Assembly: GCA_900549555.1 (NCBI GenBank)
Contig: UROO01000001.1
Coordinates: 1 to 54,354, forward strand
Length of the DNA stretch: 54,354 nucleotides
Direction: 5' to 3'
From: an uncultured Collinsella sp.
GTDB taxonomy: Bacteria > Actinomycetota > Coriobacteriia > Coriobacteriales > Coriobacteriaceae
Shown piece by piece: positions 131 to 36,380 of this stretch. The notes under the pieces were generated by a model. That model saw only the letters and a list, made by a program, of their open reading frames with translations, was not told the DNA's origin and made no database searches. Both the position numbers and the translations under genes were made by a program. Within the stretch, counting starts at the first letter, position 1, and each line of letters begins with the position of its first letter.

Positions 131-207
131 GTCCCCATCGTCTAGCGGCCAAGGACGCCACCCTTTCAAGGTGGATATCGCGGGTTCGAATCCCGCTGGG
201 GGCACCA
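131..207 (+). tRNA. tRNA-Glu (anticodon TTC), prophage integration target
   Basis: Acceptor stem GTCCCCA/TGGGGGC, anticodon arm CCACC-CT TTC AA-GGTGG, T-loop GGTTCGAATCC, encoded CCA end; TGCTATACT extended -10-like element at 112-120. Confidence 0.97.
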
Positions 208-1605
208 TTTGCATTTTGTACGAACCCGCTGGATGTCAAGTCTGGCGGGTTCGTTGTTTTCCACGTCGTAGTTCAGCGTCACTATGCACTCTTCGTCGCT
301 CACGCTCGCCTGGTATACGAACGCCTTCAATAGAGTCGCGTCGTCCAGGGCGGAGCCGCATTGCAGGAAGTCGGCCAGCCGCTCGGGGTCTATCTGATCG
401 TCCCTGATCGCCTCAAGGTCGAGCTTGGCGCGGTCGCGCTGATGCTCAAGCTCCGCTATGCGCTCCTTCGCGCCCGGGGCGATTATGCCCTGTTCGATGG
501 CGTTCAGGATGTTCTTCAGGCCGCGCTCGGCGGCCGAGAGCGATTGGGCGGCCTGCTTGCGCCTCGCCGCCACCTCTGCCCCGTCCGAGCTTTCCGCCAC
601 CATGCGGGCTATCCTCAAGGCCTCCTCGCGGTCTTGCAGAAGAGCCCGCAGCGCCTTGACGATCTCGCCCTCAAGCTCCTCGCGCCTGACGGGCTTAACG
701 CATCCGTCGTGGCAGCGGTAGTACTCGTACTTGCGGTTGCCGCGCCCGCGCCCGCTCACGCCTTGCAGGTTGCGCCCGCAGCCCGCGCAGATCGCCTTGC
801 CAGAAAGGGCGAAGTCGCCCCAGCTCTCCGCGCTGCGCTCCTTGGCCGCGCGTATGCCCTGTGCCTCCATGAACGTCACCTCGTCGATGATCGCGGGCAT
901 GCCGCCCTCTTTGACAACGCCGCCCCACTCGTAGCGCCCCGTGTACTTCCGGTTCTTCACCATCCGCTCGACCATCGAGTAGCCGCACGGGTTTCCCTGC
1001 GAGGTCTTGACCCCGCGTGCCGCGAAGTCGCGTGCTATCGAGTTGGTGGCCTCCTTTGCTATGCGCCGCTTGAACGCCTCGCGCACGAAAGCGGCCTCGT
1101 CCTCGTTAATCACGTACTCGTCGGCCTCGTTGCTGGCGTAGCCGAACACGCGCACGCCGTTGGTCTTGCACTTGAGCGCGTTGCCCTCCATGCCGCGCCT
1201 CGTGCGGATCGCGGTCTTCTTCGACTCGCACGCCGCAAGGCCCTCAAGCAGCTTCTCGTAAATGATGCCCTCGGGCGAATCGGGTATCTGTTCAAGCGCC
1301 GAGACGAGCTTCACGCCGTGCTGGGCAAGCTCGCGCTTATATATTGGAGCGTCGTACTCGCCACGGCTGAAGCGATCCATCATGTACACAAGCACTATGT
1401 CGCTCTCGCCAGCGTTCGCGACCATGCGCTGGAACTCGGGGCGGTCGTCGGTGCGCCCGCTTATGGCGTAGTCGCAGTATTCCGCCACGATGGCGTAGCC
1501 CTCGCGTTTGCACCAGTCGCGGCACACGCGCAGCTGGTCGTCTATTGAGGCCTCGCGCTGCTTGTTGCACGAAAAGCGGGCGTATATCACCGCAGTTTTT
1601 GGCAT
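166..1605 (-). CDS. Large serine recombinase (integrase), 479 aa in prophage form
   Basis: MPKTAVIYARFS catalytic Ser motif, DRFSR, recombinase domain, CAGCG...YYRC zinc ribbon, coiled coil; AGGAGG RBS before ATG at 1605; ORF runs across the att core into the tRNA antisense. Confidence 0.95.
   Translation of the reverse strand: MPKTAVIYARFSCNKQREASIDDQLRVCRDWCKREGYAIVAEYCDYAISGRTDDRPEFQRMVANAGESDIVLVYMMDRFSRGEYDAPIYKRELAQHGVKLVSALEQIPDSPEGIIYEKLLEGLAACESKKTAIRTRRGMEGNALKCKTNGVRVFGYASNEADEYVINEDEAAFVREAFKRRIAKEATNSIARDFAARGVKTSQGNPCGYSMVERMVKNRKYTGRYEWGGVVKEGGMPAIIDEVTFMEAQGIRAAKERSAESWGDFALSGKAICAGCGRNLQGVSGRGRGNRKYEYYRCHDGCVKPVRREELEGEIVKALRALLQDREEALRIARMVAESSDGAEVAARRKQAAQSLSAAERGLKNILNAIEQGIIAPGAKERIAELEHQRDRAKLDLEAIRDDQIDPERLADFLQCGSALDDATLLKAFVYQASVSDEECIVTLNYDVENNEPARLDIQRVRTKCKWCPQRDSNPRYPP
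202..207 (+). other. Left attachment core (GCACCA, tRNA 3' end)
   Basis: Same hexamer at 36375-36380; joining the phage-side flanks gives near-palindromic attP GCAAACGGTG|CACCATTTGC. Confidence 0.8.
220..260 (+). terminator. Phage-supplied terminator for tRNA-Glu, overlapping the integrase antisense strand
   Basis: Stem ACGAACCCGC (220-229)/GCGGGTTCGT (245-254) followed by TGTTTT. Confidence 0.65.
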
Positions 1606-1639
1606 AATTGGAAACGGCCTCCTTTCAGAGGTTCTTTGG

Positions 1640-1692
1640 AAAAGCCCCGCGGGCAGCGTTGCAGCGCTATGACCCCGTGGGGCTTCTTCTTT
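1640..1692 (-). terminator. Hairpin/terminator between PH-domain gene and integrase
   Basis: AAGCCCCGCGGG...CCCCGTGGGGCTT inverted repeat flanked by T/A runs. Confidence 0.55.
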
Positions 1693-1693
1693 T

Positions 1694-2233
1694 CTATGCG
1701 TTGATGCGGCGCACGTTCTCGTATGCGAGCTCCGAGAGCAGCGAGTAGAGACCCTGGACGTCGAAGCCCTTCGGGAACTCAAGCGTCTTGGTCTCCGTCT
1801 GCACGCCTTGGACCTTGTAGTACGGGCTTGTGATGTACGCGAACGACAGCTCGGCGTGGTCGAAGCCCATACCGGCCGTCTCAAGGCGCACCCCGACGAT
1901 GCTTTGGAGGTCGATGGACACGGCCGCTGCCTTGGCGCCAGTCATGCCCTGGTGGTCGATGAAGACGATTCTGCGGTCCGTGAACAGCATCTTGTCACGC
2001 ACGAGCGCAAAGCAGCGCGTGAACGACTCTCCACGCATGAGATACATGCCATATTGCTGCTGAGCGGATTCGGCCGAAAGCTCAGAGTAGTGCCCCATCA
2101 CACCCTGCACAACGCCACTAGTGCCTTGACCATTTATGGTTTGCTGGTCACGGTCGATTGCATCTTGTACAGCGCTCTGCGCCTGCGACACAGCTGCATT
2201 TGCCATGTCCTTCATCATATCTTTCAATGCCAC
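1694..2233 (-). CDS. Bacterial PH-domain (bPH_1-like) protein in the lysogeny operon
   Basis: RDKMLFTDRRIVFIDHQGMTG...ETAG motif typical of bacterial PH proteins; directly downstream of the repressor. Confidence 0.75.
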   Translation of the reverse strand: MALKDMMKDMANAAVSQAQSAVQDAIDRDQQTINGQGTSGVVQGVMGHYSELSAESAQQQYGMYLMRGESFTRCFALVRDKMLFTDRRIVFIDHQGMTGAKAAAVSIDLQSIVGVRLETAGMGFDHAELSFAYITSPYYKVQGVQTETKTLEFPKGFDVQGLYSLLSELAYENVRRINA

Positions 2234-2235
2234 GG

Positions 2236-2559
2236 CTACTCCTTCCTTGTCGCCGGGAAAGCCTCGGCGATTCCGTTTGCTGCCGCAAGTAATGCCTTGC
2301 GGCCCTCTTTATTCATGGCGTTAAAGAGCGTTAGTAATTCGCGCTCGGCGCTTCCCATCTGTTCGCCATCGCCCTCTTCGAGATCGAACAGTTCACCAAT
2401 TGTGCATTTGAAATACCGGGCGAACTCTGCCGCAGTATCCATATCAGGACTTGTATTTCCAAGCTCGTAGTTTTGGTACGTGCGGTATTTAAGGCCGAAT
2501 ACGCTAGCAGCTTCTTTCTGGGTCAGCCCTGAACGCTGCCGTAGGTCTTTAAGGCTCAT
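2236..2559 (-). CDS. CI-like XRE-family repressor
   Basis: LKDLRQRSGLTQKEAA...TYQNYELGNTSP HTH; divergent from the Cro-like gene. Confidence 0.9.
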   Translation of the reverse strand: MSLKDLRQRSGLTQKEAASVFGLKYRTYQNYELGNTSPDMDTAAEFARYFKCTIGELFDLEEGDGEQMGSAERELLTLFNAMNKEGRKALLAAANGIAEAFPATRKE

Positions 2560-2590
2560 ATCTCACCCCTAACTTAGGATAGTTGAAGCA

Positions 2591-2680
2591 TACAAGAAAC
2601 TTGTACGAATAGCAAACTTTTAGGGTTTACAGATACAAGAATCTTGTATATAGTGCCATTCAGGCACAAGAAACTAGTGC
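2591..2680. promoter_or_regulatory. Lysis/lysogeny switch: three operator palindromes and a rightward promoter
   Basis: TACAAGAAACTTGTA (2591-2605), TACAAGAATCTTGTA (2634-2648), CACAAGAAACTAGTG (2665-2679); TTTACA (2626-2631)-17 bp-TATAGT (2649-2654). Confidence 0.85.
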
Positions 2681-2693
2681 AAAGGAGGAAACA

Positions 2694-2918
2694 ATGCTCA
2701 ACAATCTTGTGTCCGAGCGTAAGCGGGCAGGCCTGACCAGAGAAGAAGTCGGTGAAAAGATCCACCGCTCCGAATACGTTATCGGCAAGTGGGAGCGTGG
2801 CGAGAGTTCACCGCTACTGGTTCCAGACGCAATCAACTTGGCAAAGCTCTACGGATGCTCTGTTGACTACCTCGCCGGGTTAGTCGAGGAGCGCACATCA
2901 AAAGGCGTAGCGGTCTAA
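2694..2918 (+). CDS. Cro-like XRE HTH protein
   Basis: ERKRAGLTREEVGEKI...IGKWERGESSP...YGCSVDYLAG; AGGAGG RBS. Confidence 0.9.
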   Translation: MLNNLVSERKRAGLTREEVGEKIHRSEYVIGKWERGESSPLLVPDAINLAKLYGCSVDYLAGLVEERTSKGVAV

Positions 2919-3056
2919 ATGTCAGCCGAAGAGGCCAAACAGAAGGAAGAGAAGCCCAAGACCGCCCGCGAAGTTGCCTTTGACGGCATGTGCTCGACGA
3001 TCCGTCAGGCATACCGCGAGTGGGAACGCCAGCAGAAGGGAGAAGCGAAGGCGTGA
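2919..3056 (+). CDS. Small hypothetical protein (45 aa, MSAEEAKQKEE...), not in ORF track
   Basis: ATG abuts the Cro stop; TGA overlaps the next GTG start. Confidence 0.6.
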   Translation: MSAEEAKQKEEKPKTAREVAFDGMCSTIRQAYREWERQQKGEAKA

Positions 3057-3415
3057 AGCAGTGGTCTACACGTGAACTCAGATACCTCGAAGAGCACGCT
3101 GGAGACGGCGCCAAGCAGGTAGCCAAGGACCTCGGGCGCTCCATCGACTCAGTGAAGCATATGGCGCGGAAGTGCGGACTCTCACTCCGCAAGCGCAGGC
3201 AGTGCCCCCGCTGCGGCCAATGGACGTTCCGACCGCTCAACAGGGTCAACGGCTGGTGCATCGAGTGCACGAAGGAGCTTCACATGGCAGACCTCGCCGA
3301 ACAGGCCAACGCAATGAAGGAGGAGGCGATCAGGGAGAAGAGGAATGACAGGCAGCGCCAGCGCTACTACAGCCAGAAGAGCAGGGCGAAAAAGGCGACA
3401 AAAAAGAGGCCCTAA
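3053..3415 (+). CDS. HTH + CxxC zinc-finger protein
   Basis: WSTRELRYL...AKDLGRSIDSVK and CPRC/CIEC motifs; coupled start. Confidence 0.7.
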   Translation: MKQWSTRELRYLEEHAGDGAKQVAKDLGRSIDSVKHMARKCGLSLRKRRQCPRCGQWTFRPLNRVNGWCIECTKELHMADLAEQANAMKEEAIREKRNDRQRQRYYSQKSRAKKATKKRP

Positions 3416-3462
3416 AAAGCGCCCTAGCAATGACCTGCGAAAACACCGAAAGGAGAACGGAA

Positions 3463-3747
3463 ATGCAGACAAAAAAGAAAGCGAGCGCCCCCCGCTACCA
3501 CACTTCGGGCACCCGCTACGTAGCCGCCTCGAAAGAGGCTGCATCCATCATACCATTCGAGGGCAAGCGCCCGACGGCGCAGGAGCAGCTTGAGCGCTCC
3601 CAGTTCAAGGCGGGCGTCATGGTCGGCTTCCTCGCGGCCCTCATGATCTTTCTCGCCGTGCTCTGGCTCTGGGTTATCCCCACGATGGACCAGGCCGTTG
3701 CCGACGCCCAGCGAGCCGTGGGCAGCATGGCGGTGCTCAATGCGTAA
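3463..3747 (+). CDS. Hypothetical membrane protein
   Basis: AAGGAG RBS; single hydrophobic helix. Confidence 0.65.
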   Translation: MQTKKKASAPRYHTSGTRYVAASKEAASIIPFEGKRPTAQEQLERSQFKAGVMVGFLAALMIFLAVLWLWVIPTMDQAVADAQRAVGSMAVLNA

Positions 3748-4075
3748 CGACGAGATATACCGCCCCAAGCCCCAGAGCAACCAGCTTGAGATCTTCGGCC
3801 TGGGCATGGCTGGCGAGCAAGACGTTGCCGAGGCCAAGAAGTGGATCGAGGCCAACCCCGAGGCGTGGCGGTTCATGCTCTCCAACGCCCGCCGCCTCAA
3901 GGAGAAGGGCTACGTGTCGATCAACTACCTGGTGAACATGGTGCGCAACGAGCTGCACGTTGGCTGCAAGAACGGCATAGCCCCAGCCCTTGCCCGAATC
4001 ATGGAGGCGCGGTACCCAGAGCTGCGCGGAGCCTTCAACAAGCACCGCAGCCAGAGCGATGGGTTCAGCGAATGA
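3740..4075 (+). CDS. Hypothetical phage protein
   Basis: Overlapping start/stop coupling with neighbours; host-like codon usage. Confidence 0.65.
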   Translation: MRNDEIYRPKPQSNQLEIFGLGMAGEQDVAEAKKWIEANPEAWRFMLSNARRLKEKGYVSINYLVNMVRNELHVGCKNGIAPALARIMEARYPELRGAFNKHRSQSDGFSE

Positions 4076-4533
4076 GCTGGCAGCGCACCCTTGCGGCCAC
4101 GGCGCACATCACCATGCACCCAGCAGAGCTTGTTGGAAAGCAGCGCCCTATGACCGACTACCGCAACCACCGCACCTACACGCCGACCAAGACGCTCAAG
4201 GCCGAGAAGGCCATCAAGGACGCGTTCCGCGCGGCATACGGCGAGACCTTCGCCGACCACGACGGCCCGGTCGTGATGCGGATCTCGACCACCAGGCCGC
4301 TCGCGAAGAGCAACCCGAAGTACTGGGAGGGCCGCGCCGACCTCGGCAAGCCCGACTGGGACAACCTCGGCAAGCTCGCCTGCGACGCGCTCAACGGGAT
4401 CGCCTTCAAGGACGATTCGCAGGTCGACATGGGAGCCGTCACCAAGCGCCCGAGGTCGCCATACGGCACCAAACCACGCATAGACATCTACATCGAGTAC
4501 TTCGTCGAGGAGTACGTGAAGGAGAAGAAATGA
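4072..4533 (+). CDS. rusA: RusA-family Holliday junction resolvase
   Basis: KPDWDNLGKLACDALNGIAFKDDSQV signature. Confidence 0.9.
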   Translation: MSWQRTLAATAHITMHPAELVGKQRPMTDYRNHRTYTPTKTLKAEKAIKDAFRAAYGETFADHDGPVVMRISTTRPLAKSNPKYWEGRADLGKPDWDNLGKLACDALNGIAFKDDSQVDMGAVTKRPRSPYGTKPRIDIYIEYFVEEYVKEKK

Positions 4534-4847
4534 ACGCCAAATACTTCGAAGAGAACGGCTTTGAGGACGTCCACGGGAGCCAGTTCCACAAAGCGGTGCT
4601 CGACCACGCCGCCTGCATCGCGAACAACCTCATGTTCGATGCCACGCATCCTGACAACAACGACGGCGAGACGGAGGCAAACGCCTACCACGTGATGATC
4701 GCGCTTTGCGAGGCCGGGCTTTCCCGAATCGACGAGAAGTGCGTCGCCAAGAGCCGCAAGTTAATCGCCGACAAGATCAAGCCCGTCAGCGAGGAAGAGC
4801 TTGAGTTCGGTCGCGCGTTCCTTGCCGCCGTCCTCGGCATCAAATAG
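4530..4847 (+). CDS. Hypothetical phage protein
   Basis: ATGA overlap with rusA. Confidence 0.65.
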   Translation: MNAKYFEENGFEDVHGSQFHKAVLDHAACIANNLMFDATHPDNNDGETEANAYHVMIALCEAGLSRIDEKCVAKSRKLIADKIKPVSEEELEFGRAFLAAVLGIK

Positions 4848-4858
4848 GAGGTAACGAC

Positions 4859-5062
4859 ATGATCAACGAAGCGACCATCCAGGCGCAGTTCAAGCAGGCC
4901 ACCGTGAAGGGAAGCGTGGCGACCCTGCAATTCGAGATCCTGACCGACAACGCCGACGCCTTCCGCATCATCAAGCAGAGCGGCAAGGCGGTTTTGCTCA
5001 CCGTGGCCGAGCAGCAGCAGGCCATGGACTTCGACGACGAGACGGGCGAGATCTATGGCTAA
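4859..5062 (+). CDS. Hypothetical phage protein
   Basis: AGGAGG RBS; coupled to next gene. Confidence 0.65.
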   Translation: MINEATIQAQFKQATVKGSVATLQFEILTDNADAFRIIKQSGKAVLLTVAEQQQAMDFDDETGEIYG

Positions 5063-6032
5063 GGAAACCGAACCGCAGCAGGTCGAGGCCGAGGTCATCG
5101 AAACCGAGGCCACCACGCTTGAGGTCACGTACACCGAGGCCACCATCGCTTCGAACATGGACGCGTTGGAGGCCCACGTGAAGAAGGTCGTCGCCGACTA
5201 CGAGGGCGCCACCTACGACCTCACGAGCGCCCAGGCCATCAAGGAGGCCAAGCACGACCGCAGCTACCTCAACGGCATCAAGAAGGAGATCGACGAACGC
5301 CGCAAGGCCGTGAAGCGCGAGTACAACAAGCCGCTCGACGCATTCGAGAGGCGCTGCAAGCAGATCACGGCCATCATCGACGAGTCAACCGACGCCATCA
5401 AGGCGCAGCTCGACGAGGCCGAGCAGACGCGCAAGGACGCGCTCTACTCACGCCTGCAGCAGCACTACGAGGAGTTCGCGGGACTGCTCGCGCCGGTCGT
5501 CCCCTACGAGCGCCTGCATGAGCCGCAGTGGCTCAACAAGACCTTCGGCGAGATCAAGGCGCAGCAGGCGCTTGAGGCAAAGGTGTCCGACGTGGCCCGA
5601 GATTGGGAAACGCTCAAGGCCCAGCAGGAGGCGATGCCGCACTACGCCGACGCGGAGCGCGAGTTCTTCCGCACGCTCGACCTCGGAGCCGCCTTGAACG
5701 CGGCGCGTTTGGCCGACGAGGAAGACCAGCGCATCGCCGAGCTGAAGGCGGCCATGGCGCCAGAACCCGAACCGGAACCGATGCCGGAACCAGAGCCTGA
5801 GCCGGTCGAGATCCCCGAGCCTGAGCCGATGCCCGCGCCAGCGCCAATGCCCACCCCCATGCCGGCGCCCATACCAGCACCGGTCGCGGAGCCCTTGGAG
5901 GCGTGGACGGTCGAGGTGCCGAGCGCCACGCGATCGCAGATGCAGGCGCTCGCATCCGTGCTCAAGGCGCAGGGAATCACCGGAAGCATCCGCCGGGGCA
6001 CGCCAGCCCAGGTGGCAGCGAGGATGGAGTAG
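5055..6032 (+). CDS. DUF1351-like coiled-coil protein with Pro/Glu-rich linker
   Basis: AKHDRSYLNGIKKEIDERRKAVKREYNKP motif; located before the ERF recombinase. Confidence 0.7.
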   Translation: MAKETEPQQVEAEVIETEATTLEVTYTEATIASNMDALEAHVKKVVADYEGATYDLTSAQAIKEAKHDRSYLNGIKKEIDERRKAVKREYNKPLDAFERRCKQITAIIDESTDAIKAQLDEAEQTRKDALYSRLQQHYEEFAGLLAPVVPYERLHEPQWLNKTFGEIKAQQALEAKVSDVARDWETLKAQQEAMPHYADAEREFFRTLDLGAALNAARLADEEDQRIAELKAAMAPEPEPEPMPEPEPEPVEIPEPEPMPAPAPMPTPMPAPIPAPVAEPLEAWTVEVPSATRSQMQALASVLKAQGITGSIRRGTPAQVAARME

Positions 6033-6035
6033 ACG

Positions 6036-6605
6036 ATGGCAGAAGACAAGCACATGACGCTGGCCGAGGCCGTGGCCCAGGTGCAGCGATCCGTGGTTGT
6101 GCCCAAGGCACGCTACAACGCCCACGGCAACTTCTACTACCGTTCGATGGAGGACATCGTGGCGGCGCTCAAGGAGCCGTGCAAGGAGGCGGGCATAGCC
6201 TTCACGCTCAACGACAGCATCGTGCAGATCGGCGAGCGCTACTACGTCGAGGCCACGTGCCGCCTGTTCTTCGAGGACGGCCACGGCGATCCCATGGACG
6301 TGACGGCCTACGCCCGAGAGCCTTTGAGCCAGAAGGGCATGAACGAGGCGCAGGTCACGGGCAGCGCATCCAGCTACGCCAGAAAGTACGCGCTCTGCGG
6401 AGCGTTCGACATCGACGGCACCTCAGACCCCGACACGCTCATGGGAACCGAGAAGTCCGCCGAGAAGGAGCCGCCAGAGTTCGGCCAGTTCATCGCCAAG
6501 TGCAAGAGCTGCGGCACCTCCTACGTCTTCGAGAGCCGCCAGCAGTACGAGCAGTTCAAGGCCAACCCAGGGTGCTGCCCGTCCCCCGCGTGGCAGGTCG
6601 TGTAG
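6036..6605 (+). CDS. ERF-family single-strand annealing protein
   Basis: YRSMEDI and AQVTGSASSYARKYALCGAF signatures. Confidence 0.88.
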   Translation: MAEDKHMTLAEAVAQVQRSVVVPKARYNAHGNFYYRSMEDIVAALKEPCKEAGIAFTLNDSIVQIGERYYVEATCRLFFEDGHGDPMDVTAYAREPLSQKGMNEAQVTGSASSYARKYALCGAFDIDGTSDPDTLMGTEKSAEKEPPEFGQFIAKCKSCGTSYVFESRQQYEQFKANPGCCPSPAWQVV

Positions 6606-6608
6606 GCC

Positions 6609-6956
6609 ATGCAAGACCTCTACGCCGAGCGCATGCAGCTCTTCGACAGGCTCATGGACGAGCTTCAGGCGCTGCGCAACAGCGGAAGCCAGTACGCCGA
6701 GAACGAGGCCGAGTACCGCAAGGCGCTGCGCATCGCGATCCTTGAGGAGCGATCCAAGGGAACGCCAGTGACGGTGATAAGCGACCTCTGCCGAGGACGT
6801 GAGGACATAGCCGAGCTGAAGCAGCGCAGGGACTGCGCCGAAGCGCTCTACAAGGCGAGCCAAGAGGCGATAAACGTGTACAAGCTCAAGATCCGAACCG
6901 TTGACGAGGACATAAAGCGCACCTGGTCGAACGGGACGGGCGAAGGGAGTTACTAA
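6609..6956 (+). CDS. Hypothetical phage protein
   Basis: Operon position between ERF and SSB. Confidence 0.65.
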   Translation: MQDLYAERMQLFDRLMDELQALRNSGSQYAENEAEYRKALRIAILEERSKGTPVTVISDLCRGREDIAELKQRRDCAEALYKASQEAINVYKLKIRTVDEDIKRTWSNGTGEGSY

Positions 6957-7520
6957 ATGTCGATCAACCGAGTGAACATCAGCGGCAACTTGACCCGCGA
7001 CCCCGAGCTGCGGGCTACCCAGGGCGGCATGCAGGTTCTGGGCTTTGGCGTGGCCGTCAACGACCGCCGCCGCAACCAGCAAACCGGCGAGTGGGAGGAC
7101 TACCCGAACTTCGTGGACTGCACGATGTTCGGCAACCGCGCCGAGAGCATGGGCCGCATCCTGCACAAGGGCATGAAGGTGGCCATCGAGGGCAAGCTGC
7201 GCTATTCGAGCTGGGACAAGGACGGCCAGCGCCGATCCAAGCTTGAGGTGATCGTGGACGAGATCGAGCTCATGAGCCAGAAGCAAGCCCCGGCGGCGCC
7301 GCAGGGATACCAGCAGCAGTACGCGCCGCAGCCCGCCCCGCAGGCGGCACCCCAGCAGTGGAACGCGCAGCAGGCCTACCAGCAAGCTCCGGCGGCACCG
7401 CAGGGATACCAGCAGGCGCCCGCCCAGTACGCGCCGCAGCCCGCCCCGCAGGCGGCGCCGCAGCAAGCGCCCATGCCGCCCGCCCAGGAAAGCCTGTACG
7501 ACGGCGACATCCCGTTTTAG
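6957..7520 (+). CDS. ssb: Single-stranded DNA-binding protein
   Basis: INRVNISGNLTRDPELR OB fold; acidic DIPF C-terminus. Confidence 0.95.
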   Translation: MSINRVNISGNLTRDPELRATQGGMQVLGFGVAVNDRRRNQQTGEWEDYPNFVDCTMFGNRAESMGRILHKGMKVAIEGKLRYSSWDKDGQRRSKLEVIVDEIELMSQKQAPAAPQGYQQQYAPQPAPQAAPQQWNAQQAYQQAPAAPQGYQQAPAQYAPQPAPQAAPQQAPMPPAQESLYDGDIPF

Positions 7521-7533
7521 GGGCGATGGCGGC

Positions 7534-29184: not shown

Positions 29185-29431
29185 ACTCATGTCGGCCATG
29201 CGCCGATACGGCGCCGCGATGGCCGATGCGACCGCCAACGACCCTCCCGGCCAGCAGGCGTGCTACGGAACGGTGAATTCCGTATCCGGAGCCACCATGG
29301 CCGTATCGGTGAAGGGGGCATCCCTGAAGCTCCCGTACACCACCTCATGCTCGGGAGCCAAGGCAGGCGACCGATGCATCATCCAGGCAATCGGCCCGCA
29401 CGCCATCGTGATCGGCGTGCTAGCTAAGTAA
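29174..29431 (+). CDS. Small tail protein
   Basis: GGAGG RBS; AGDRC...VIG. Confidence 0.6.
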   Translation: MSDELMSAMRRYGAAMADATANDPPGQQACYGTVNSVSGATMAVSVKGASLKLPYTTSCSGAKAGDRCIIQAIGPHAIVIGVLAK

Positions 29432-29441
29432 AGGAGGTGCG

Positions 29442-30167
29442 ATGGCAGATACCAACAAAGGCGCGGCGCTGCTGCTCAACGATGCGGGTAACATCGACCG
29501 CGCCAGAACCACCGACGGCTCGATCTTCCGCATCGAGTCGACGCTATCGATGGAGGCCGCCGAAGAGGCCAAGACGGCAGCGGCGAACTGCAACACCGCG
29601 ACTGAAAGCGCCGAAGCGGCAGAGAAGACGCGCGTGTCCAACGAGAACGCTCGGAAAACGGCTGAGACCGAGCGCGGCAACAACGAGACAACCCGCAAGA
29701 ACAACGAGACGTCGCGCAAGAACGCCGAGACAACACGTCAAGACAACGAAACTGCGCGAAAGAATGCCGAAACCACGCGCCAGAACAACGAGACGAGCCG
29801 ATCGAACGCCGAGATTGAACGCAAAAAGGCCGAAAGCCAGCGCCATGACGAGCATATCGCCGACCAACAAGCATCGAGCAACGCGACCTCTGCGGCGAAC
29901 GGCGCGGCTTCGCGTGCGGACGCAGCGGCGAACCAGGCGTTGCAGATCGCCAACTCCGTGGCGCAAGGCAGCGCAGGAAGCTCGGACGTCGCGGAGCTGC
30001 GTGCCCAGAACGCGAAGCTCGCGACGCTTTTGGCGAACTCGACAGGTCAGTTCATATACATGGGCGGAACAGTCTACTGCCCGGCTTCAAAGGCATCGGC
30101 GAGCGGGGTGACCGTAACGTTCGGCTCAACATGCTCCGCAAGCGGCAATACCATCACATTGATTTAA
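29442..30167 (+). CDS. Coiled-coil tail fibre-like protein
   Basis: 7-aa repeats E-T-x-R-x-N-N/A; AGGAGG RBS. Confidence 0.7.
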   Translation: MADTNKGAALLLNDAGNIDRARTTDGSIFRIESTLSMEAAEEAKTAAANCNTATESAEAAEKTRVSNENARKTAETERGNNETTRKNNETSRKNAETTRQDNETARKNAETTRQNNETSRSNAEIERKKAESQRHDEHIADQQASSNATSAANGAASRADAAANQALQIANSVAQGSAGSSDVAELRAQNAKLATLLANSTGQFIYMGGTVYCPASKASASGVTVTFGSTCSASGNTITLI

Positions 30168-30179
30168 GAAGGAAACGAA

Positions 30180-31091
30180 ATGGCTCAAGCTAAGATCCTC
30201 ACAGTGGGCGGCACCAACTACGAGATGATAGACGACACCGCCCGCACCAACGCCACCACGGCGCTCAACAACGCCGAGTACAACCGACAGGGCCTGATCG
30301 GCAAGTACCCGGGCCAGTCGCTCGCAACGCTTCTCGCGGGCGAGGTCTCAGGCTCCGCCACCATCTACGACGCGCTGCACAAGCGCGTGCAGGCCGCGAA
30401 CTTCAGCGGCATGCGCGTGGGCGACTACATCGACGTGCCGCTCGTGAGCGCGTCAAACGTGGCGGCCCAGCAGTCCGTGCGCTTCCTGCTTGCGCACTTC
30501 GACCCGTACTACCAGTGCGGCGACAGCGCCAAGGGCCACCACATCGCGTTCATCGCGTCCGCGCCCGTCGCCGTGGCCAAGACCGTCACCGGCGTGGCCA
30601 ACGACAGCTACCTGATGTGGAACACTGCGAACACCAACCAGGGCACCGCAGACGTGAAGAACCCGTACCTGAACAGCAACCTCAAGGCGTGGGAGAAGCT
30701 GTTCGAGGCGTGCCTGCCCGAGGGGCTGACCAAGTACCTGCTCACCCAGCGCGTGCTGCTTGAGGAGCGTTACAGCGCGAGCGGCGCGCTCGGCGACTCC
30801 AACAGCTGGAGCTGGCAGGACATCGGCAAGGTGTGGTCGCCCTCCGAGATGGAGGTGTACGGCTGCCCAGTGTGGGGCACCAAGGGCTACAGCGTGGGCT
30901 TCGACTGCCAGTTCGACCTGTTCCGCGATACCGCGCACCGCTTGAACGGAACTCGGTGCGCTTGGTGGCTGCGTTCCGTCATGGGTGGCTCCTCGTCCAG
31001 CGTGTGCTACGTCAACGGCCACGGCGCTGCCTCCTTCGATTTGGCGACGACCGCCTGGGTTCGCCCCCGCCCCGGCTTCCTCGTCGGCTAG
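30180..31091 (+). CDS. DGR target protein, putative receptor-binding protein (C-type-lectin-like C-terminus)
   Basis: PSEMEVYG, WWLRS...CYV...VRPRPGF; 3' end matches TR. Confidence 0.92.
   Translation: MAQAKILTVGGTNYEMIDDTARTNATTALNNAEYNRQGLIGKYPGQSLATLLAGEVSGSATIYDALHKRVQAANFSGMRVGDYIDVPLVSASNVAAQQSVRFLLAHFDPYYQCGDSAKGHHIAFIASAPVAVAKTVTGVANDSYLMWNTANTNQGTADVKNPYLNSNLKAWEKLFEACLPEGLTKYLLTQRVLLEERYSASGALGDSNSWSWQDIGKVWSPSEMEVYGCPVWGTKGYSVGFDCQFDLFRDTAHRLNGTRCAWWLRSVMGGSSSSVCYVNGHGAASFDLATTAWVRPRPGFLVG
30953..31080 (+). repeat. DGR variable repeat (VR)
   Basis: 128-nt gapless alignment to 31692-31819; 17 mismatches, 16 at TR adenines. Confidence 0.96.
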
Positions 31092-31119
31092 CCAGCCGAG
31101 TGCTCTATACTTCTCTTTC

Positions 31120-31173
31120 GATGCGACCGCCTTGCGCGGTCGCATCCCTGCCCGCGCAGCGGGCCGTTTTTTT
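31120..31173 (+). promoter_or_regulatory. Double hairpin downstream of VR (DGR target recognition and/or terminator)
   Basis: GATGCGACCGC-CTTGC-GCGGTCGCATC (31120-31146); GCCCGC-GCA-GCGGGC (31150-31164) then T7. Confidence 0.75.
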
Positions 31174-31196
31174 CGCAACTATTTCCGGGAGGTGCC

Positions 31197-31667
31197 ATGA
31201 GCGGCGTCTACCAGCGAAACCGCGAGGTGTCCGAGTACAAGTTCTTCACGCAGGCCATCGCCATCCGCGTGGAGGTCAACAAGCTCATGGCCTCCTCGTC
31301 GGTCGTGCCGAAAGCCTACAGGCTGCTGAACGCAGTCCCCACGGTGGAGACCGCGCGCAGCATCGTATACAACGTCAACCGCGCCGACTGCTTCTACCCC
31401 AACAGTTCGTTCAACGCACTTGAGCGCAAGCGTTACCTGACGCTGGCGATAGCCGACTGCGAGCAGCTGATGCTCGACATGCAGTGCCTCATGGACATCG
31501 GCCTGCCCGTGAACGCCAACCGCTTCGAGGCGCTGGCGGGCATGGTCGAGGAGGAGATCAAACTGCTCAAGGGCGCGCGCAAGAACGTACGCGTCACCGG
31601 CAAGAAGACGACCGACGAGCGCATAGCCGAGGCCGAGGCCGAGCTAGAGCGCCTGCGTTCGTTATAA
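31197..31667 (+). CDS. avd: DGR accessory protein (Avd-like four-helix bundle)
   Basis: 156 aa helical protein between target and TR; GGAGG RBS. Confidence 0.8.
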   Translation: MSGVYQRNREVSEYKFFTQAIAIRVEVNKLMASSSVVPKAYRLLNAVPTVETARSIVYNVNRADCFYPNSSFNALERKRYLTLAIADCEQLMLDMQCLMDIGLPVNANRFEALAGMVEEEIKLLKGARKNVRVTGKKTTDERIAEAEAELERLRSL

Positions 31668-31691
31668 TGGGCGGCGGTCCCGCCTTGTATA

Positions 31692-31819
31692 TCGGTACAA
31701 TTGGTGGCTGCGTTCCGTCATGGGTGGCTCCTCGTCCAACGTGTGCTACGTCAACAACAACGGCAATGCCAACTACAATTCGGCGACGAACACCTGGGTT
31801 CGCCCCCGCCCCGGATTCC
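31692..31819 (+). ncRNA. DGR template repeat (TR)
   Basis: Intergenic; 9 AAY codons in the VR frame; 25 adenines. Confidence 0.96.
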
Positions 31820-32031
31820 CTTACTGCCAGACCGAGTAGGCCAGCGGGCCGAAAGCAGAGCGCGGAGAGGAAGGAAGGCGCGACCATCGGGCGCGAGCCC
31901 GTAAATACGCACCCCGCGAGGGTGGCCGGACGCTGCTTGCATGGCGCGGCGCTCCGTGGCTTCGCCGCGTTTCATGGCCATACCTCAAGCGGCTGTCAGA
32001 GCCACATTGCAAGCCGTGCGGGGTGCCTTCT

Positions 32032-33240
32032 ATGAACTCGGAGCAAAGGCGGGCCGCACGCCGGAAGCGCCGCGAGGAGAAGCGCGCCAGGGCCAAGGCC
32101 GAGCGCGTCAAGGCGTGCACCCTTGAGACGGTGGCCGACCTCAACAGCCTGTGCAAGGCTTCCAAGCAGGCCGCGCGTGGCGTCATGTGGAAGGCCTCGA
32201 CGCAGCAGTACATGAAGGACTACCTGCGAAACGCCGTGAAATCGCGCCAAGACCTTTTGGAGGGCCGCGACATATGCCGGGGTTTCATCCGCTTCGACCT
32301 GTGGGAGCGCGGCAAGCTGCGCCACATCAGTGCAGTGCACTTCCCCGAGCGCGTGGTGCAGAAGTCGCTGTCCCAGAACGCCCTCGTGCCCGCGATAGTC
32401 CCCACGCTCGTATCCGCGAACTCCGCCAACATCAAGGGGCGCGGCACCGACTACGCCCTTAAGCTGCTCAAGCGCCACCTGGCCGACCACTGGCGGCGGC
32501 ATGGGCGCGAGGGCTACATACTGCTGGGCGACTTCTCCGACTACTTCGCGCGCATTGCCCACGAGCCGGTCAAGCGGCAGGTGGCCGACGCGCTGCTCGA
32601 CCCGCGCGTGGTCGCCCTTGAGCACCGCCTGATAGACGCGCAGGGCGAGGTCGGCCTGGGCCTGGGCAGCGAGCCAAACCAGATATGCGCGGTGGCGCAC
32701 CCCAACCGCATCGACCACTACGTGGCCGAGATGCTGCGCCCCGAGGCCTACGGGCGCTACATGGACGACTTCTACCTGATCCACGAGTCCAAGGAGTACC
32801 TGCAAGTGTGCCTTCTGCTGATAGAGCACGAGTGCGCGAAGCTCGGCATCGCGCTGAACCCGCGCAAGACCCGCGTGGTGAAGCTGACGCGCGGCTTCAC
32901 GTGGCTGAAGAAGCGCATCTTCTACACCGAAACGGGCCGCATCGTCATGAAGCCGTGCCGCGACTCCATCACGCGCGAGCGACGCAAGCTGAAGAAGATG
33001 GCCCGCATGGTGGCCGAGGGGGTCATGACGCCCGAGCAGGTGCAGCAGAGCTACCAGAGCTGGCGCGGCGGCATGGCTCACTCGGACGCGCACCGCAGCG
33101 TGCTGGCCATGGACGCGCTGTACCGCAGCCTGTTCGAAAATCTCGCGGGGGGGTTGCTCAATGCAACCAAGCCCGAGAGACGATTCGGGCGGAACGCCCT
33201 CGCCATAGCGGAAGGGCGGCAACTCAAAACGGCGGCCTAG
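32032..33240 (+). CDS. DGR reverse transcriptase
   Basis: ERGKLRHI, ERVVQ, GRGT, GDFSDYF, GLGLGSEPNQ, YGRYMDDF; alternative GTG start at 32023. Confidence 0.96.
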   Translation: MNSEQRRAARRKRREEKRARAKAERVKACTLETVADLNSLCKASKQAARGVMWKASTQQYMKDYLRNAVKSRQDLLEGRDICRGFIRFDLWERGKLRHISAVHFPERVVQKSLSQNALVPAIVPTLVSANSANIKGRGTDYALKLLKRHLADHWRRHGREGYILLGDFSDYFARIAHEPVKRQVADALLDPRVVALEHRLIDAQGEVGLGLGSEPNQICAVAHPNRIDHYVAEMLRPEAYGRYMDDFYLIHESKEYLQVCLLLIEHECAKLGIALNPRKTRVVKLTRGFTWLKKRIFYTETGRIVMKPCRDSITRERRKLKKMARMVAEGVMTPEQVQQSYQSWRGGMAHSDAHRSVLAMDALYRSLFENLAGGLLNATKPERRFGRNALAIAEGRQLKTAA

Positions 33241-33270
33241 ACGGGTCGAAAACGAAATAACCAAGACAGC

Positions 33271-33300
33271 GAAGGCGTGCTGCGGCGCGCCTTCTTTCTT
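33271..33300 (+). terminator. Terminator after RT
   Basis: GAAGGCGTGC-TGCG-GCGCGCCTTC then TTTCTT. Confidence 0.7.
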
Positions 33301-33378
33301 CGCGCCCGCCCAAACGGCCAGGCAATCTCACGGCGCTAATACGATGGCGGCACATTCCCCGATAAGGAAGGAGTCCGC

Positions 33379-33705
33379 ATGGACACTGAGGAAGACATGC
33401 CGCGCCCCGACGAGCTTCGAGACGGCACCCTGGCCGAGGTCAACGCCCTGCGCGACCTGCTGTCGCAGATCGGCGACCCCGACGCGGCGCACGACGCGGG
33501 CGTTATCGACGATGACGAGTACGTGGAGCGGAAGGCGCGAAAGCTCGCCTACACCTCCGCGCTCGCCGCCTACGCCAACGGCGAGGTGCCCGACCTCCCG
33601 GCGCTGCTCGAACAGATGCGCGAGCAGGCGTCCCAGCCGACGCAGACCGAGACCAACACGGCGAACATCGACTACCTGCTCATGACCGTGGGAGGTGAGC
33701 AGTAA
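33379..33705 (+). CDS. Hypothetical protein (XkdW-like position)
   Basis: AAGGAG RBS; ANIDYLLM C-terminus; precedes XkdX-like gene. Confidence 0.65.
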   Translation: MDTEEDMPRPDELRDGTLAEVNALRDLLSQIGDPDAAHDAGVIDDDEYVERKARKLAYTSALAAYANGEVPDLPALLEQMREQASQPTQTETNTANIDYLLMTVGGEQ

Positions 33706-33872
33706 TGGCTACGAAGAAAACCGTTGAGCATTCCAAGCACTTCGCGAAGGTCAAGAAGTACTACGACAAAGACCTTTGGAGCAAGGCGCGCGTCTACAAG
33801 GCTGTCGAGTGCAAATGGATCACCGCCGACGAGTACAAGGAAATCACCGGCGAGGAGTACACGGCCGAATAG
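33705..33872 (+). CDS. XkdX-family protein (55 aa), not in ORF track
   Basis: KVKKYYDKDLW...WITADEYKEITGEEY. Confidence 0.85.
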   Translation: MATKKTVEHSKHFAKVKKYYDKDLWSKARVYKAVECKWITADEYKEITGEEYTAE

Positions 33873-33892
33873 GCGGAAGGAGGGCGCCCAGG

Positions 33893-34306
33893 ATGGAAGT
33901 GCTCAAGCTTTTTGCGCCTTACGGACCGGCTTGGCTTGGCGGCGTGCTCCTGACGCTCGTTGCGTTCTACTTCGGGAGACAATTTCTTGAGGAGTACAAA
34001 CGCCAAAACCAGCGGAAGGGCGAGCTCGACCTGAAGCGCGAGGAGCGCAAGCAGGCCGAAGTCGACGAGAGGGCGCAGCGCGACCGCGAGCGGTCCCAAA
34101 TGGAGGGGCGCATCGCCGCCCAGATGGAGCGCAGCAACACCCTGATTGAAGGAATGAAAACGCTCATGGAGTCGGTTGTCGCGTCAAATGACGTCCTCCA
34201 CGCGGACTTGGTCCACAGCCAGGCGCGTAGCCAGGGCATGGCCGAGAAGGTCGACCATATCTACGACCGAGTCGACCTCATGTACAACAAGGAGACAGGG
34301 AGATAG
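33893..34306 (+). CDS. Membrane-anchored coiled-coil protein (lysis module)
   Basis: N-terminal TM helix then coiled coil. Confidence 0.65.
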   Translation: MEVLKLFAPYGPAWLGGVLLTLVAFYFGRQFLEEYKRQNQRKGELDLKREERKQAEVDERAQRDRERSQMEGRIAAQMERSNTLIEGMKTLMESVVASNDVLHADLVHSQARSQGMAEKVDHIYDRVDLMYNKETGR

Positions 34307-34308
34307 AG

Positions 34309-34617
34309 ATGACTGATATACAGGCAGGACTCACGGTGCTGACCGTCCTCGTGGTGCCCTATATCGTGCAGGCTATCAAGACGAAGGCGATGACCGGCAA
34401 TGTCGCCCGCTGGACGGCCATCGCAGTATCGGCGCTGTGCGGCGCATTGACGGCCATGGCCGGGGGTATGCCGACTGACCCCACGGCGTGGGTTACGTCC
34501 ATCTTCGCCGCGGTAGGCGGCGTGCAGGTGGCATATGCAGCCTTCAAGGCGGTCGGCGTGACAGACAAGTGGCTCGACGCGCTGCTTGCCATGGGCACTC
34601 CGAAGAAGGACGACTAG
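34309..34617 (+). CDS. Putative holin
   Basis: Three hydrophobic helices, charged C-terminus, near endolysin. Confidence 0.72.
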   Translation: MTDIQAGLTVLTVLVVPYIVQAIKTKAMTGNVARWTAIAVSALCGALTAMAGGMPTDPTAWVTSIFAAVGGVQVAYAAFKAVGVTDKWLDALLAMGTPKKDD

Positions 34618-34619
34618 GA

Positions 34620-35270
34620 ATGGGCGGCAAGCGCCTCGTGCGCATCGCCGCCGCCATCTCGCTGCTTGCTTTGCTCGCCGCCTTCGCCGACGTGGCGCTT
34701 ATAGCCTCTAACGTGCCGAAGGTGCCGAAGGAAGAGCCTTTGCCCGTCATCTACGACAAGCCGCTCGACAAGCCCGCCGAGGTGCCCGTCTACCTCCAAG
34801 CAGACGAGCGCTGGGGCGGGCTTTCGTATGCGGGCGAAGACTTGGCCGCTTCCGGCTGCGGCCTCACGTGCGCGGCCATGGCGTGGGAATGGCTCTACGG
34901 CCAGACGTGCACGCCGGCGCAGATGCTGGGATTCGTTGGCGAATCGTGCCTCACGGACGGCGTGAACGACATGGAAAAGTTCTGCCGTTGGATGAACGCG
35001 AACGACCAGGCTTTGGGCTACACGCCTATCCACGACAACGCCGACGACGCCTTGGACGAGGCGGCTGGCGGATGGATGGTGTTTTGCAGCCTGACTGGCC
35101 AGCTACGCGACGGCGGCAAGAGCTACGGCGGGCACATCGTCCTGCTCTGCGGATGGGACGGCGAGACGGCGACATTTCACGACCCCTACGAGGGCGTGGT
35201 GCGGCTGAGCCGCGAACAGTACGAACAAGTTGATTGGGCTTATTTCATAGCGATAGGGAGCGCTGAATAG
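34620..35270 (+). CDS. Signal/anchor-bearing C39-like cysteine peptidase
   Basis: YLQADERW...SGCGLTCAAM...GHIVLL...DP. Confidence 0.8.
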   Translation: MGGKRLVRIAAAISLLALLAAFADVALIASNVPKVPKEEPLPVIYDKPLDKPAEVPVYLQADERWGGLSYAGEDLAASGCGLTCAAMAWEWLYGQTCTPAQMLGFVGESCLTDGVNDMEKFCRWMNANDQALGYTPIHDNADDALDEAAGGWMVFCSLTGQLRDGGKSYGGHIVLLCGWDGETATFHDPYEGVVRLSREQYEQVDWAYFIAIGSAE

Positions 35271-35271
35271 A

Positions 35272-36300
35272 ATGAACGGAATCGACATCAGCAATTGGCA
35301 GAACGGCATCAACCTCGCGGCTGTCCCGTTCGACTTCGTTATCTGCAAGGCTACCGAGGGCACGCGCTACGTGTCGCCCGACTGCGACCGCCAAATCCAG
35401 CAGGCGATTGGCCTTGGCAAGCTTGTGGGCGTGTACCACTACGTCAACGGCGGCGATGCCGATGCGGAGGCCGAGTACTTCTACGAGCACTGCAAGGGCT
35501 ACGTCGGCAAGGCCGCGTTCTTCATCGACTGGGAGGATCAGGGCAACGAGGCGTGGGGCGACACGTCCTACCTCAAGGCCATGGCAGAGCGTTTGGCCGA
35601 GCTTCTGGGCTTTGGCATGGATCGCATCGGCATCTACGCATCCAAGAGCGTGTTCCCGTGGAACCTCACCGGCGCCAAGACGTGGGTGGCGCAGTACGCC
35701 GACATGAACGCCACGGGCTACCAGGACGCGCCTTGGAACGAGGGCGCTTACGACTGCGCCATCCGCCAGTACTCCTCGTGCGGGCGCCTGGACGGCTGGG
35801 CGGGCAACCTCGACATCAACAAGTGCTATATCTCCCGCGCGGAGTGGGAGGCCATGGCGGGTGGCTCCAACGGCGATCCCGACTCGCTTATCCACGGCAT
35901 CGACGAGACGCCTGCGGCAGACCTCGCGGCAAAGGTGCTCGCGGGCGAGTTCGGCGACGGCGACGACCGCAAGCACGCGCTGGGCAACCGCTACTCCGAG
36001 GTGCAGGCGCTCGTGAACCACATTCTCACGGCATCCGCCGAGGATCTGGCCGCTGAGACCTGGGCAGGCGATTACGGCAACGGCAGCCGCCGCAAGGCTG
36101 TTTTGGGGCCGCGCTACGACGAGGTTATGGCGGTCATCAACGGGCAGGCCGAAACCGAGCAGGTGTACGTGGCGCAGAGCGGCGACACCCTTTCCGGAAT
36201 CGCCTCAAAGTACGGCACGACCTATCAGGATCTCGCCGCCAAGAACGGCATCTCAAACCCGAATCTGATCTATCCCGGCATGCGCCTGGTTGTTTCCTAG
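35272..36300 (+). CDS. Endolysin: GH25 muramidase + two CW_7-like repeats + LysM
   Basis: GIDISNWQ, KATEG, IDWE, QYSS; GEFGDGDDRK..LG and GDYGNGSRRK..LG; GDTLSGIA...NPNLIYPG. Confidence 0.95.
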   Translation: MNGIDISNWQNGINLAAVPFDFVICKATEGTRYVSPDCDRQIQQAIGLGKLVGVYHYVNGGDADAEAEYFYEHCKGYVGKAAFFIDWEDQGNEAWGDTSYLKAMAERLAELLGFGMDRIGIYASKSVFPWNLTGAKTWVAQYADMNATGYQDAPWNEGAYDCAIRQYSSCGRLDGWAGNLDINKCYISRAEWEAMAGGSNGDPDSLIHGIDETPAADLAAKVLAGEFGDGDDRKHALGNRYSEVQALVNHILTASAEDLAAETWAGDYGNGSRRKAVLGPRYDEVMAVINGQAETEQVYVAQSGDTLSGIASKYGTTYQDLAAKNGISNPNLIYPGMRLVVS

Positions 36301-36374
36301 GCCGCTCGTGGTATCCTAACGAAGATAATCGTGCCGATTGCGCACACCTCGGTTCGAGGAGATGCGCAAACGGT

Positions 36375-36380
36375 GCACCA
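36375..36380 (+). other. Right attachment core (GCACCA)
   Basis: Just downstream of the endolysin; followed by a terminator hairpin at the same spacing as at the left end. Confidence 0.8.

Follow-up and report, generated by a model that had tools for sequence, protein, structure and literature searches.

The window analysed here is a 54,354-nucleotide stretch of DNA from an uncultured Collinsella sp. (contig UROO01000001.1 of assembly GCA_900549555.1) that carries a siphovirus-type prophage at the CCA end of a tRNA-Glu(UUC) gene. The integrase of this prophage is a large serine recombinase (LSR). We found that the attachment site of the phage (attP) lies inside the integrase gene (int) and that recombination at this site exchanges the C-terminus of the enzyme. 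In its joined phage form, int runs into a conserved 25-codon tail that is predicted to fold as a β-hairpin, whereas in the prophage these codons lie at the far end of the element and the enzyme ends with residues read from the antisense strand of the tRNA gene. An earlier note on this DNA, made from the sequence alone, had placed attP inside the serine integrase gene and had postulated the exchange of the C-terminus. Both claims were confirmed, the former by the core sequence, the reading frames, a natural joined locus and a four-way alignment of the sites, and the latter by comparison of the junctions in that locus and in the window.

The attachment site lies within the integrase gene

The prophage int frame (1605..166, minus strand) ends with RVRTKCKWCPQRDSNPRYPP and a stop codon. 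Its final 13 codons read WC PQRDSNPRYPP before the stop: WC comes from the strand opposite GCACCA (202-207), and the 11 residues that follow come from the strand opposite the tRNA acceptor and T arms. At the other end of the prophage, the minus-strand frame 36383..36297 reads SWCTVCASPRTEVCAIGTIIFVRIPRAA up to a stop, in register with the codons TGG TGC. The part of this frame on the phage side of attR (36374-36297) is open and ends in RAA. The crossover corresponds to codons 467-468 (Trp-Cys) of int, and the joined phage-form enzyme has 493 amino acids. All coordinates and frames given in the earlier note held on re-check, so that its observation is correct in every statement. Since the endolysin gene ends at 36300, the stop codons of the tail and of the endolysin share the CTAG at 36297-36300. 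The claim that the apparently intergenic DNA is exactly filled is thus true of the window but is lineage-specific, as other lineages have an intergenic stretch after the tail stop.

The joined form exists in nature. Among the 44 IMG/VR loci that encode the window's integrase, locus L012 has ...KCKWC running directly into the tail and then into the endolysin end, which is the excised form whose junction the earlier note had proposed to look for. This locus is 99.2% identical to the right end of the window over 266 nt, and the tail is the same in protein P0011, L012 and the window. When attP of L012, attL, attR and the unoccupied site of a congener (genome G009, locus L057) were aligned (alignment A1), the partners switched within TGGTGC/GCACCA. 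The crossover therefore falls inside the 6-bp core.

We also mapped public metagenome contigs on L012; the 24 sequencing runs were represented by assembled contigs only. In one faecal run (X4), a single 2807-nt contig bridges the joined junction. In another (X18), two contigs end at positions 7410 and 7405 of L012, which are the two edges of the core, and one of them has a loose end of unrelated flank. Runs X1 and X14 gave no bridging piece, which in contig-level data is uninformative either way.

Eight more loci are in the attP form (L023, L030-32, L036, L037, L043 and L127), and in the seven of them that come from IMG/VR, the DNA 3' of int shows homology to the right end of the present prophage. 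Both forms were found within single lineages: attP in L030-32 and L127 versus attL in L024-29, and attP in L036, L037 and L043 versus attL in L038-41. We conclude that the gene has two states which are interconverted by recombination and which both occur in nature within lineages. As for an unoccupied attB identical to that of the window, most relatives carry another flank after tRNA-Glu, and only that of G009 (and of G005, behind another scar) resembles the window flank.

Endings of the prophage-form integrase

In a survey of 124 loci, the anchoring motif was present in 117. These comprise 58 loci at tRNA-Glu(UUC), 24 at tRNA-Arg(CCG), four at tRNA-Arg(CCU), nine in the attP form and 22 unclassed ones, mostly contig ends. 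In all 86 attL loci (86/86), the last base of the tRNA coincides with the Trp codon, showing that TGG is the antisense of CCA. At each of the three tRNA genes there are integrases sharing 97-99% identity with that of the window, and among them at least seven different endings occur. Such integrases come from L005, L009-L011, L021, L065, L078, L086, L090, L095, L097, L101, L109 and other loci. A single enzyme appears to use several tRNA ends, which have the ...GCACCA 3' end and the T-arm in common.

The tRNA-derived endings range from CPR, CAI or CPV directly before the stop up to 20 residues, some being just 2-3 residues long. Since they vary with the target and may be this short, the integration event amounts to the loss of the native tail, and the prophage enzyme is, judging from these endings, best described as tail-less. 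The tail swap postulated earlier therefore holds in so far as integration removes the native tail, but the tRNA-antisense ending is not a second functional tail, because the same enzyme carries arbitrary endings.

This phage family is represented by at least 588 confirmed stretches in the genome collection and is common in the human-gut genus Collinsella; cultured C. aerofaciens strains are among the carriers of the integrase. Integrases with 83-98% identity are filed under bins of Olsenella, Senegalimassilia, Eggerthellaceae and Sodaliphilus (L092, L097, L101, L117 and L120); these labels are probably due to the way in which phage or Collinsella contigs were binned, and not to true hosts.

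Conservation of the tail

A protein search gave 1842 matches among 8000 scored candidates, and we classed the endings of the best 120 together with the window's own protein (n = 121; the homologues share 55-99% identity). A long tail is present in 53, a tRNA-antisense ending in 46, a stop three residues after the Trp in 15 and a run-on of more than 150 residues in three, while the anchoring motif is absent from four. The long tails extend exactly 26 residues beyond the invariant Trp in 34 of 53 cases (range 24-29). They end in AA in 46/53 and in RAA in 41/53, as compared with 29 AA ends among 2766 long frames of the host genome (~1%). Their consensus is W-x-P-x-x-K-x-x-R-T-x5-G-G-x-V-x-L-R-x-x-R-A-A, at 54-93% identity to the reference. 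At the DNA level, the tail matches 13 of 201 genomes of the genus, the window's own included. Beyond the genome of the window, an open frame is kept at 13/13 attR or attP places; in the 12 tails readable to their stop, the last residues are RAA (six), LAA (four, in a lineage whose tail is three residues longer) or RAV (two, both in one genome), so that AA is found in 10/12. Indeed, the frame and the AA end are kept in relatives, as the earlier note had required. The LAA ends are confined to some lineages and some more distant representatives.

The proportions of synonymous (pS) and nonsynonymous (pN) differences were compared using six non-independent pairs from four lineages, which were pooled. 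For the distal 15 tail codons, pS was 0.67 and pN 0.36 (pN/pS 0.54), and for the gene body, 0.50 and 0.23 (pN/pS 0.46). This ratio in the distal tail, at a pS of 0.67, shows that selection acts on the protein and that silent sites are unconstrained. The tailed product is also widely annotated: gene callers run on hundreds of assemblies yield a protein of 492-503 amino acids, and the representative P0007 covers 655 member sequences.

When the profile was compared with a library of representatives clustered at 50% identity, 5336 proteins matched it with E <= 1e-30. Among the 92 listed distant representatives of 440-560 amino acids, 15 end in AA after a hydrophobic hairpin-like stretch and 17 in tRNA-antisense-like motifs; the latter is an indicative count based on a pattern of our own. 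The split-integrase design thus probably extends well beyond Collinsella. Three near-identical integrases (96-99%) of 619-652 amino acids (P0004, P0006 and P0008) carry 150-185 residues of unrelated sequence past the Trp-Cys, which may result from integration at other sites without a near stop or from assembly chimeras.

Integrase domains and arms of the attachment sites

The domain matches of the integrase in Pfam are those of an LSR: Resolvase (5-143), Recombinase (168-253) and Zn_ribbon_recom (267-320). R10 and S12 are invariant in 46 aligned sequences, and profiles of the A118, TP901-1 and SPbeta integrases match the protein. The coiled-coil typical of LSRs is present in the AlphaFold2 prediction as long helices (342-371 and 379-402) that link the ribbon to the last strands. 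The attachment sites also have LSR character, that is, an imperfect dyad symmetry, a 6-bp core and an outer motif whose distance from the centre is smaller in attB than in attP. The profile alignment to the A118 integrase structure reaches only to the VTLNY strand, close to the end of that protein, which makes the final ~47 residues here a family-specific extension.

The first part of this extension is a linker (447-473) with a pLDDT below 50. Of the 24 distinct DNA versions, whose proteins are 59-100% identical, 23 have its codons GAA CCC GCC...CGG GTT CGx (EPA...RVR) unchanged and one has GCA for GCC. Silent change is depressed here, with a pS of 0.19 against 0.50 in the body. Directly after the tRNA CCA on the plus strand, positions 220-254 form a hairpin with a 15-bp stem (fold -25.4 kcal/mol, z -3.6), and a T-rich run comes next. 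This hairpin was scored as terminator-like and looks like a replacement terminator for the tRNA. From its fixed codons, the linker sequence would be dictated largely by the DNA, namely the P' arm and the hairpin.

A palindrome (GCAAATGGTGCA/TGCACCGTTTGC) spans the attP centre. The distance of the motif CGAAC from the site centre is 18-19 nt in both P and P' and 14 nt in the B arm, where the motif belongs to the tRNA T-arm. An outward shift of 4-5 bp is of the kind that separates attP from attB half-sites in LSRs, and CGAAC may be the motif bound by the zinc-ribbon domain (DBD2). In the P arm, it is found at +19 within the detached tail DNA and encodes the conserved Arg-Thr of the tail, whose first 10 codons overlap this arm.

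Predicted structure of the tail

The AlphaFold2 model was made for P0007 with 46 sequences (mean pLDDT 78). It predicts two strands in the tail (477-481 and 484-490, pLDDT 57-74) that form a β-hairpin. When residues 447-493 were docked on residues 255-446, ipSAE was 0.72 (0.75, 0.72 and 0.69 in the individual runs), compared to 0.02 for the best control; the mark set by the docking tool is attained in 58 of 80 solved complexes and in 2 of 110 mismatched pairs. At least 74% of the contacts are common to the runs, and the pLDDT of the partners is at least 60. In the docked models, residues 478-492 contact 435-444, 306-342 and 405. The partner of strand 484-490 is 439-444, and the hairpin touches residues 306-342 and 405, which belong to the helices entering and leaving the coiled-coil. 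In these models, the tail hairpin is placed on the last canonical strand of DBD2 and on the base of the coiled-coil. The last three residues are outside the predicted strands, yet 491-492 belong to the docked interface. The models support a tail docked at the DBD2/coiled-coil junction.

Possible function of the tail

In the mechanism that we propose, the free or circular phage would make the 493-residue enzyme, in which a linker of ~22 residues is followed by the 25-residue tail with its β-hairpin and terminal (R/L)AA, and the tail would dock on the last canonical DBD2 strand and the base of the coiled-coil. Integration strands the tail codons at attR, 36 kb from int. The prophage then encodes a tail-less enzyme ending after a few arbitrary tRNA-antisense residues, and excision rebuilds the full int gene. 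The tailed form, probably short-lived, would serve attP x attB, and the tail-less form attL x attR: the tail would occupy the DBD2/coiled-coil hinge, which sets the trajectory of the coiled-coil and hence the directionality of an LSR, and the AA end may further mark the tailed form for ClpXP. The two interconvertible gene states and the purifying selection on the tail imply that the phage-state enzyme needs it for some task with which the prophage-state enzyme can dispense. Because a folded hairpin is predicted to dock at this very place, activity or directionality is no less likely than half-life to be what the tail affects. On balance, we lean towards the view that removal of the tail alters the hinge and thereby which pair of sites is recombined, or how well, as the docking models and the analogy to the SPbeta integrase discussed below suggest.

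Several points weigh against this view. The docking is a model built from the family's own alignment, and its two chains are parts of one protein. The pN/pS comparison has a small and non-independent basis, and the tail evolves faster than the body (pN 0.36 vs 0.23). Seven of the 53 tails lack the AA end, and one genome has ...RAV twice. The free-form contigs might stem from lytic growth without a lysogenic cycle. No recombination directionality factor (RDF) was recognized among the 15 prophage products scanned, which leaves room for ordinary control by an RDF. Finally, the C-terminus of the SPbeta integrase is needed for excision, whereas here the enzyme of the excision state has no tail, so that the analogy may fail in sign.

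A stronger form of the hinge reading, which seems doubtful to us, is that the tail is a latch in cis that holds the enzyme in an integration-competent state. The lysogen would make only unlatched enzyme, competent for attL x attR, maybe with no or minimal RDF, and excision would restore both the latch and the AA tag, which would clear the enzyme so that the freed genome does not re-integrate. If this were true, the state of the gene, and not solely a second protein, would hold the directionality, and the design would appear to be common to a wide clade of tRNA-targeting LSRs.

The terminal AA may, on the other hand, be an ssrA-like ClpXP tag that makes the phage-form integrase short-lived, with integration stabilizing the enzyme. 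Such a switch would parallel, at the protein level, the retroregulation by lambda sib and the removal of a degron in integration-dependent immunity. The AA end is found in 46 of 53 tails, and it is kept across different spacer lengths (...RIPRAA, ...RIPRTRLAA, ...PREKRAA and ...PRKAA), which suits a terminal signal better than a packed residue. Its frequency among the distant representatives (15/92) likewise exceeds the ~1% of host frames. The host has a tmRNA frame ending in ALAA and a clpP-clpX pair, and mycobacterial phages tag both their repressor and their tyrosine integrase with -AA, as stated in part of PMC8092301. However, a degron needs few residues, yet the hairpin of ~20 residues is conserved as well and is predicted to be docked with 491-492 in the interface. 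Moreover, the residue before AA is mostly Arg (RAA in 41/53) and not the Leu of the canonical LAA, and 7/53 tails have no AA at all. We consider a change in stability as the main effect somewhat unlikely; it is plausible from the endings but is probably not the whole story, and it is compatible with an altered hinge rather than exclusive of it.

Another account starts from the constraint on DNA at the crossover: the attachment site and a replacement tRNA terminator had to lie at the extreme end of the genome beside int, and the frame merely runs through them. The tail would then be an ordinary part of the fold that the phage-form enzyme needs, and a weaker, tail-less enzyme would be tolerated because it still excises. 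The fixed linker codons with their low pS (0.19), the Trp codon that is the antisense of CCA, the occurrence of CGAAC in all four half-sites (14 nt from the centre in the B arm vs 18-19 nt in the P arms) and the arbitrary tRNA-derived endings all agree with this. An unimportant tail, however, would keep neither its length, hairpin pattern and AA end down to 55% identity nor a pN/pS like that of the body. The conservation of these features means that some form-specific requirement exists, and we regard the by-product account as improbable. That the attR-side frame is untranslated and owes its conservation only to the attP P arm and to the terminal part of the endolysin gene is extremely improbable. 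The overlap of the first 10 codons with the P arm would fit, but the stop position is kept (26 residues after the Trp in 34/53) and the distal 15 codons show frequent synonymous change (pS 0.67) with conservative replacements. In other lineages, nothing overlaps the tail on the opposite strand, and the product of 492-503 residues is called in hundreds of assemblies. We therefore return to the altered hinge as the reading that we prefer, with a stability effect possibly added to it.

Prophage layout and older integration scars

The features of the window are given in Table 1. From the domain and gene scans, the prophage holds a complete siphovirus-type gene set between 208 and 36380. The host assembly has 2.09 Mb in 187 contigs, and tRNA-Glu(ttc) at 131-207 is the only tRNA that ARAGORN found in the window. 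A search of GenBank phages with the left end of the prophage gave no named relative, the 23 matching records covering the tRNA only (<=4% of the query).

Table 1 Features of the prophage and its flanks in the window
Feature	Position	Strand	Basis
Prophage, siphovirus-type, 36.2 kb	208-36380		at CCA end of tRNA-Glu(UUC) of Collinsella
Prophage body	208..36374	.	domain and gene scans of products
tRNA-Glu(UUC), intact, CCA encoded; B arm of attB	131..207	+	ARAGORN; half-site offsets
attL copy of the 6-bp common core GCACCA	202..207	.	minus-strand codons TGG TGC = integrase Trp-Cys
Prophage-form LSR gene, 479 aa	166..1605	-	open reading frame and domain matches
Last ~21 phage-encoded int codons (ENNEPARLDIQRVRTKCK...)	208..270	-	same DNA is P' arm of attP and putative terminator hairpin
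bPH_1-domain protein	1694-2233	-	domain scan
XRE-type repressor	2236-2559	-	domain scan
Erf	6036-6605		
Large terminase	14672-16096		
Portal	16096-17523		
Head protease	17495-18769		
Major head protein	19484-20362		
Tape measure	23238-25793		
C39-like peptidase	34488-35270		
Endolysin, GH25 + CW_7 + LysM	35272-36300		
Detached 3' end of phage-form int, 25 codons (TVCASPRTEVCAIGTIIFVRIPRAA) and stop	36297..36374	-	open frame; proximal part is P arm of attP
attR copy of the core GCACCA	36375..36380	.	four-way junction alignment
Host-side attR flank, decayed 3' end of another integrase of the same family	36381..36434	-	decayed frame, given in the text
Host type III glutamine synthetase gene, marks chromosomal flank	36664..38814	-	

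The candidate XRE-type repressor is intact and away from the attachment sites, and attP is thus not located in a repressor gene as it is in integration-dependent immunity. The scan for an RDF was done against Pfam or PHROGs; to our knowledge, RDFs form no common protein family. The gene of the bPH_1 protein has the orientation of int and separates it from the repressor gene; by this position, the protein is one candidate for an accessory recombination factor. The tmRNA tag given by ARAGORN (ARQPGDFPDTGATSF; genome G000, contig C119, 3820-4183) was set aside for an upstream candidate frame in the same RNA, DNNSSFEPMALAA followed by a stop, which looks like the true tag and ends in ALAA.

The tRNA-Glu site bears traces of older events. 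In the unoccupied site, the host flank at attR (36381-36434) today serves as the tRNA-type terminator hairpin (fold -29.4 kcal/mol, z -6.2). Its decayed frame (KKNEPVRW*LARVRTF*SWC, asterisks marking stops) resembles the intact integrase end of another lineage in genome G013 (NEPARLSIARVRTFSGWC). The unoccupied site of G009 (L057, 1678-1737) has an undecayed-looking copy of the same integrase 3' end, and positions 1330-1395 of L059 were part of this comparison. Since the flank is a decayed integrase end, the present phage would have entered a tRNA-Glu gene that already carried a P'-type scar (CGAAC at +18). Its target would thus have been attL-like. The spacer between tRNA-Glu and the glutamine synthetase gene differs among species in length and content. 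In L047, L048 and L056 (genomes G024, G008 and G018), it has an 18-nt duplicate of the tRNA-Glu 3' end 170-190 nt after tRNA-Glu, followed by a second terminator-like hairpin, which looks like another integration scar. In L046, L054 and others, a stretch ...GCCGGGATTCGAACCC... about 60-90 nt after the CCA is similar to the 3' part of another tRNA on the opposite strand and is possibly a further att remnant.

Implications and comparison with known systems

Serine integrases are the main enzymes of large-payload genome engineering. The integrase described here would be a natural case in which one recombination event converts such an enzyme between two isoforms, and the two natural proteins would make the role of the C-terminus and the hinge in directionality directly testable. 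For this clade, LSR catalogues mined from integrated elements would list the tail-less, tRNA-tailed isoform and not the integrating form. In the main text of the largest LSR survey (PMC10083194), a term search showed no mention of tRNA targets or of this isoform issue, its supplementary tables being outside this coverage. The loci analysed here show LSRs targeting the CCA end of several tRNA genes, the CGAAC of the B arm falling in the tRNA T-arm.

Serine recombinases at tRNA genes were described as unknown in a passage of PMC4383910 (2014) and as rare in one of PMC3218068. Those of phiRSM1/3 and of some Mycobacterium AICEs target tRNA genes, according to parts of PMC3218068 and PMC4471427; the phiRSM enzyme is of the small resolvase/invertase type, and its attP lies between two genes (PMC3218068, in part). 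No swap of the recombinase C-terminus is described in the text available for these systems, unlike the exchange found here. Location of attP inside an LSR gene was not found described in the full-text literature, with supplements and subscription journals outside this coverage, which agrees with the earlier note, which knew of no such case for a serine integrase.

An attP within int that gives the enzyme an altered C-terminus is known for tyrosine integrases, and what appears to be new from the present loci is its occurrence in a serine integrase. In Myxococcus phage Mx8, intP becomes intX on integration: attP is inside the gene, which receives a new 3' end, and the activity is altered but not abolished (PMC6070905, in part). 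The integrases of SSV-type fuselloviruses also have attP inside int and integrate into tRNA genes (PMC4383910, in part). The present phage shares with them the position of attP within the coding sequence and the new C-terminus gained at a tRNA gene. It differs in that Mx8 and SSV use tyrosine recombinases, whose long att sites include a duplicate of part of the tRNA, whereas here an LSR uses a 6-bp core at the CCA end and sheds a short, conserved tail that has a predicted hairpin and ends in AA.

A separated regulatory element is also known from lambda. There, sib, an element beyond att, lowers the output of Int by acting on its mRNA through RNase III, and integration parts sib from int. The tail is parted from int in a similar way, but it is a part of the protein.

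With respect to the proposed function, the closest parallel is the SPbeta integrase SprA. Its RDF binds DBD2 and the proximal coiled-coil, and its extreme C-terminus sits in that same pocket; this C-terminus is essential for excision and largely dispensable for integration, and was proposed as a possible 'molecular toggle switch' (bioRxiv 10.1101/2025.01.03.631226, in part). The tail described here is predicted to dock at the corresponding DBD2/coiled-coil place. The two elements are unrelated in sequence, the profile alignments to solved LSRs stopping before the tail, and the SPbeta element is always present and needed for excision, whereas the present one is removed by recombination and is absent in the excision state.

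Integration-dependent immunity, finally, offers a parallel in the logic of the gene. In BPs-like phages and prophages of M. abscessus, attP lies in the repressor gene, integration removes an -AA tag, and the bacterial or tRNA side supplies a stop or a few residues (PMC8092301, in part). As in these phages, attP is inside a gene here, the viral form ends in -AA and integration removes this end. In the mycobacterial systems, however, it is the repressor gene that is split while the tyrosine integrase keeps its own tag, whereas in the Collinsella phage the serine integrase itself is split.

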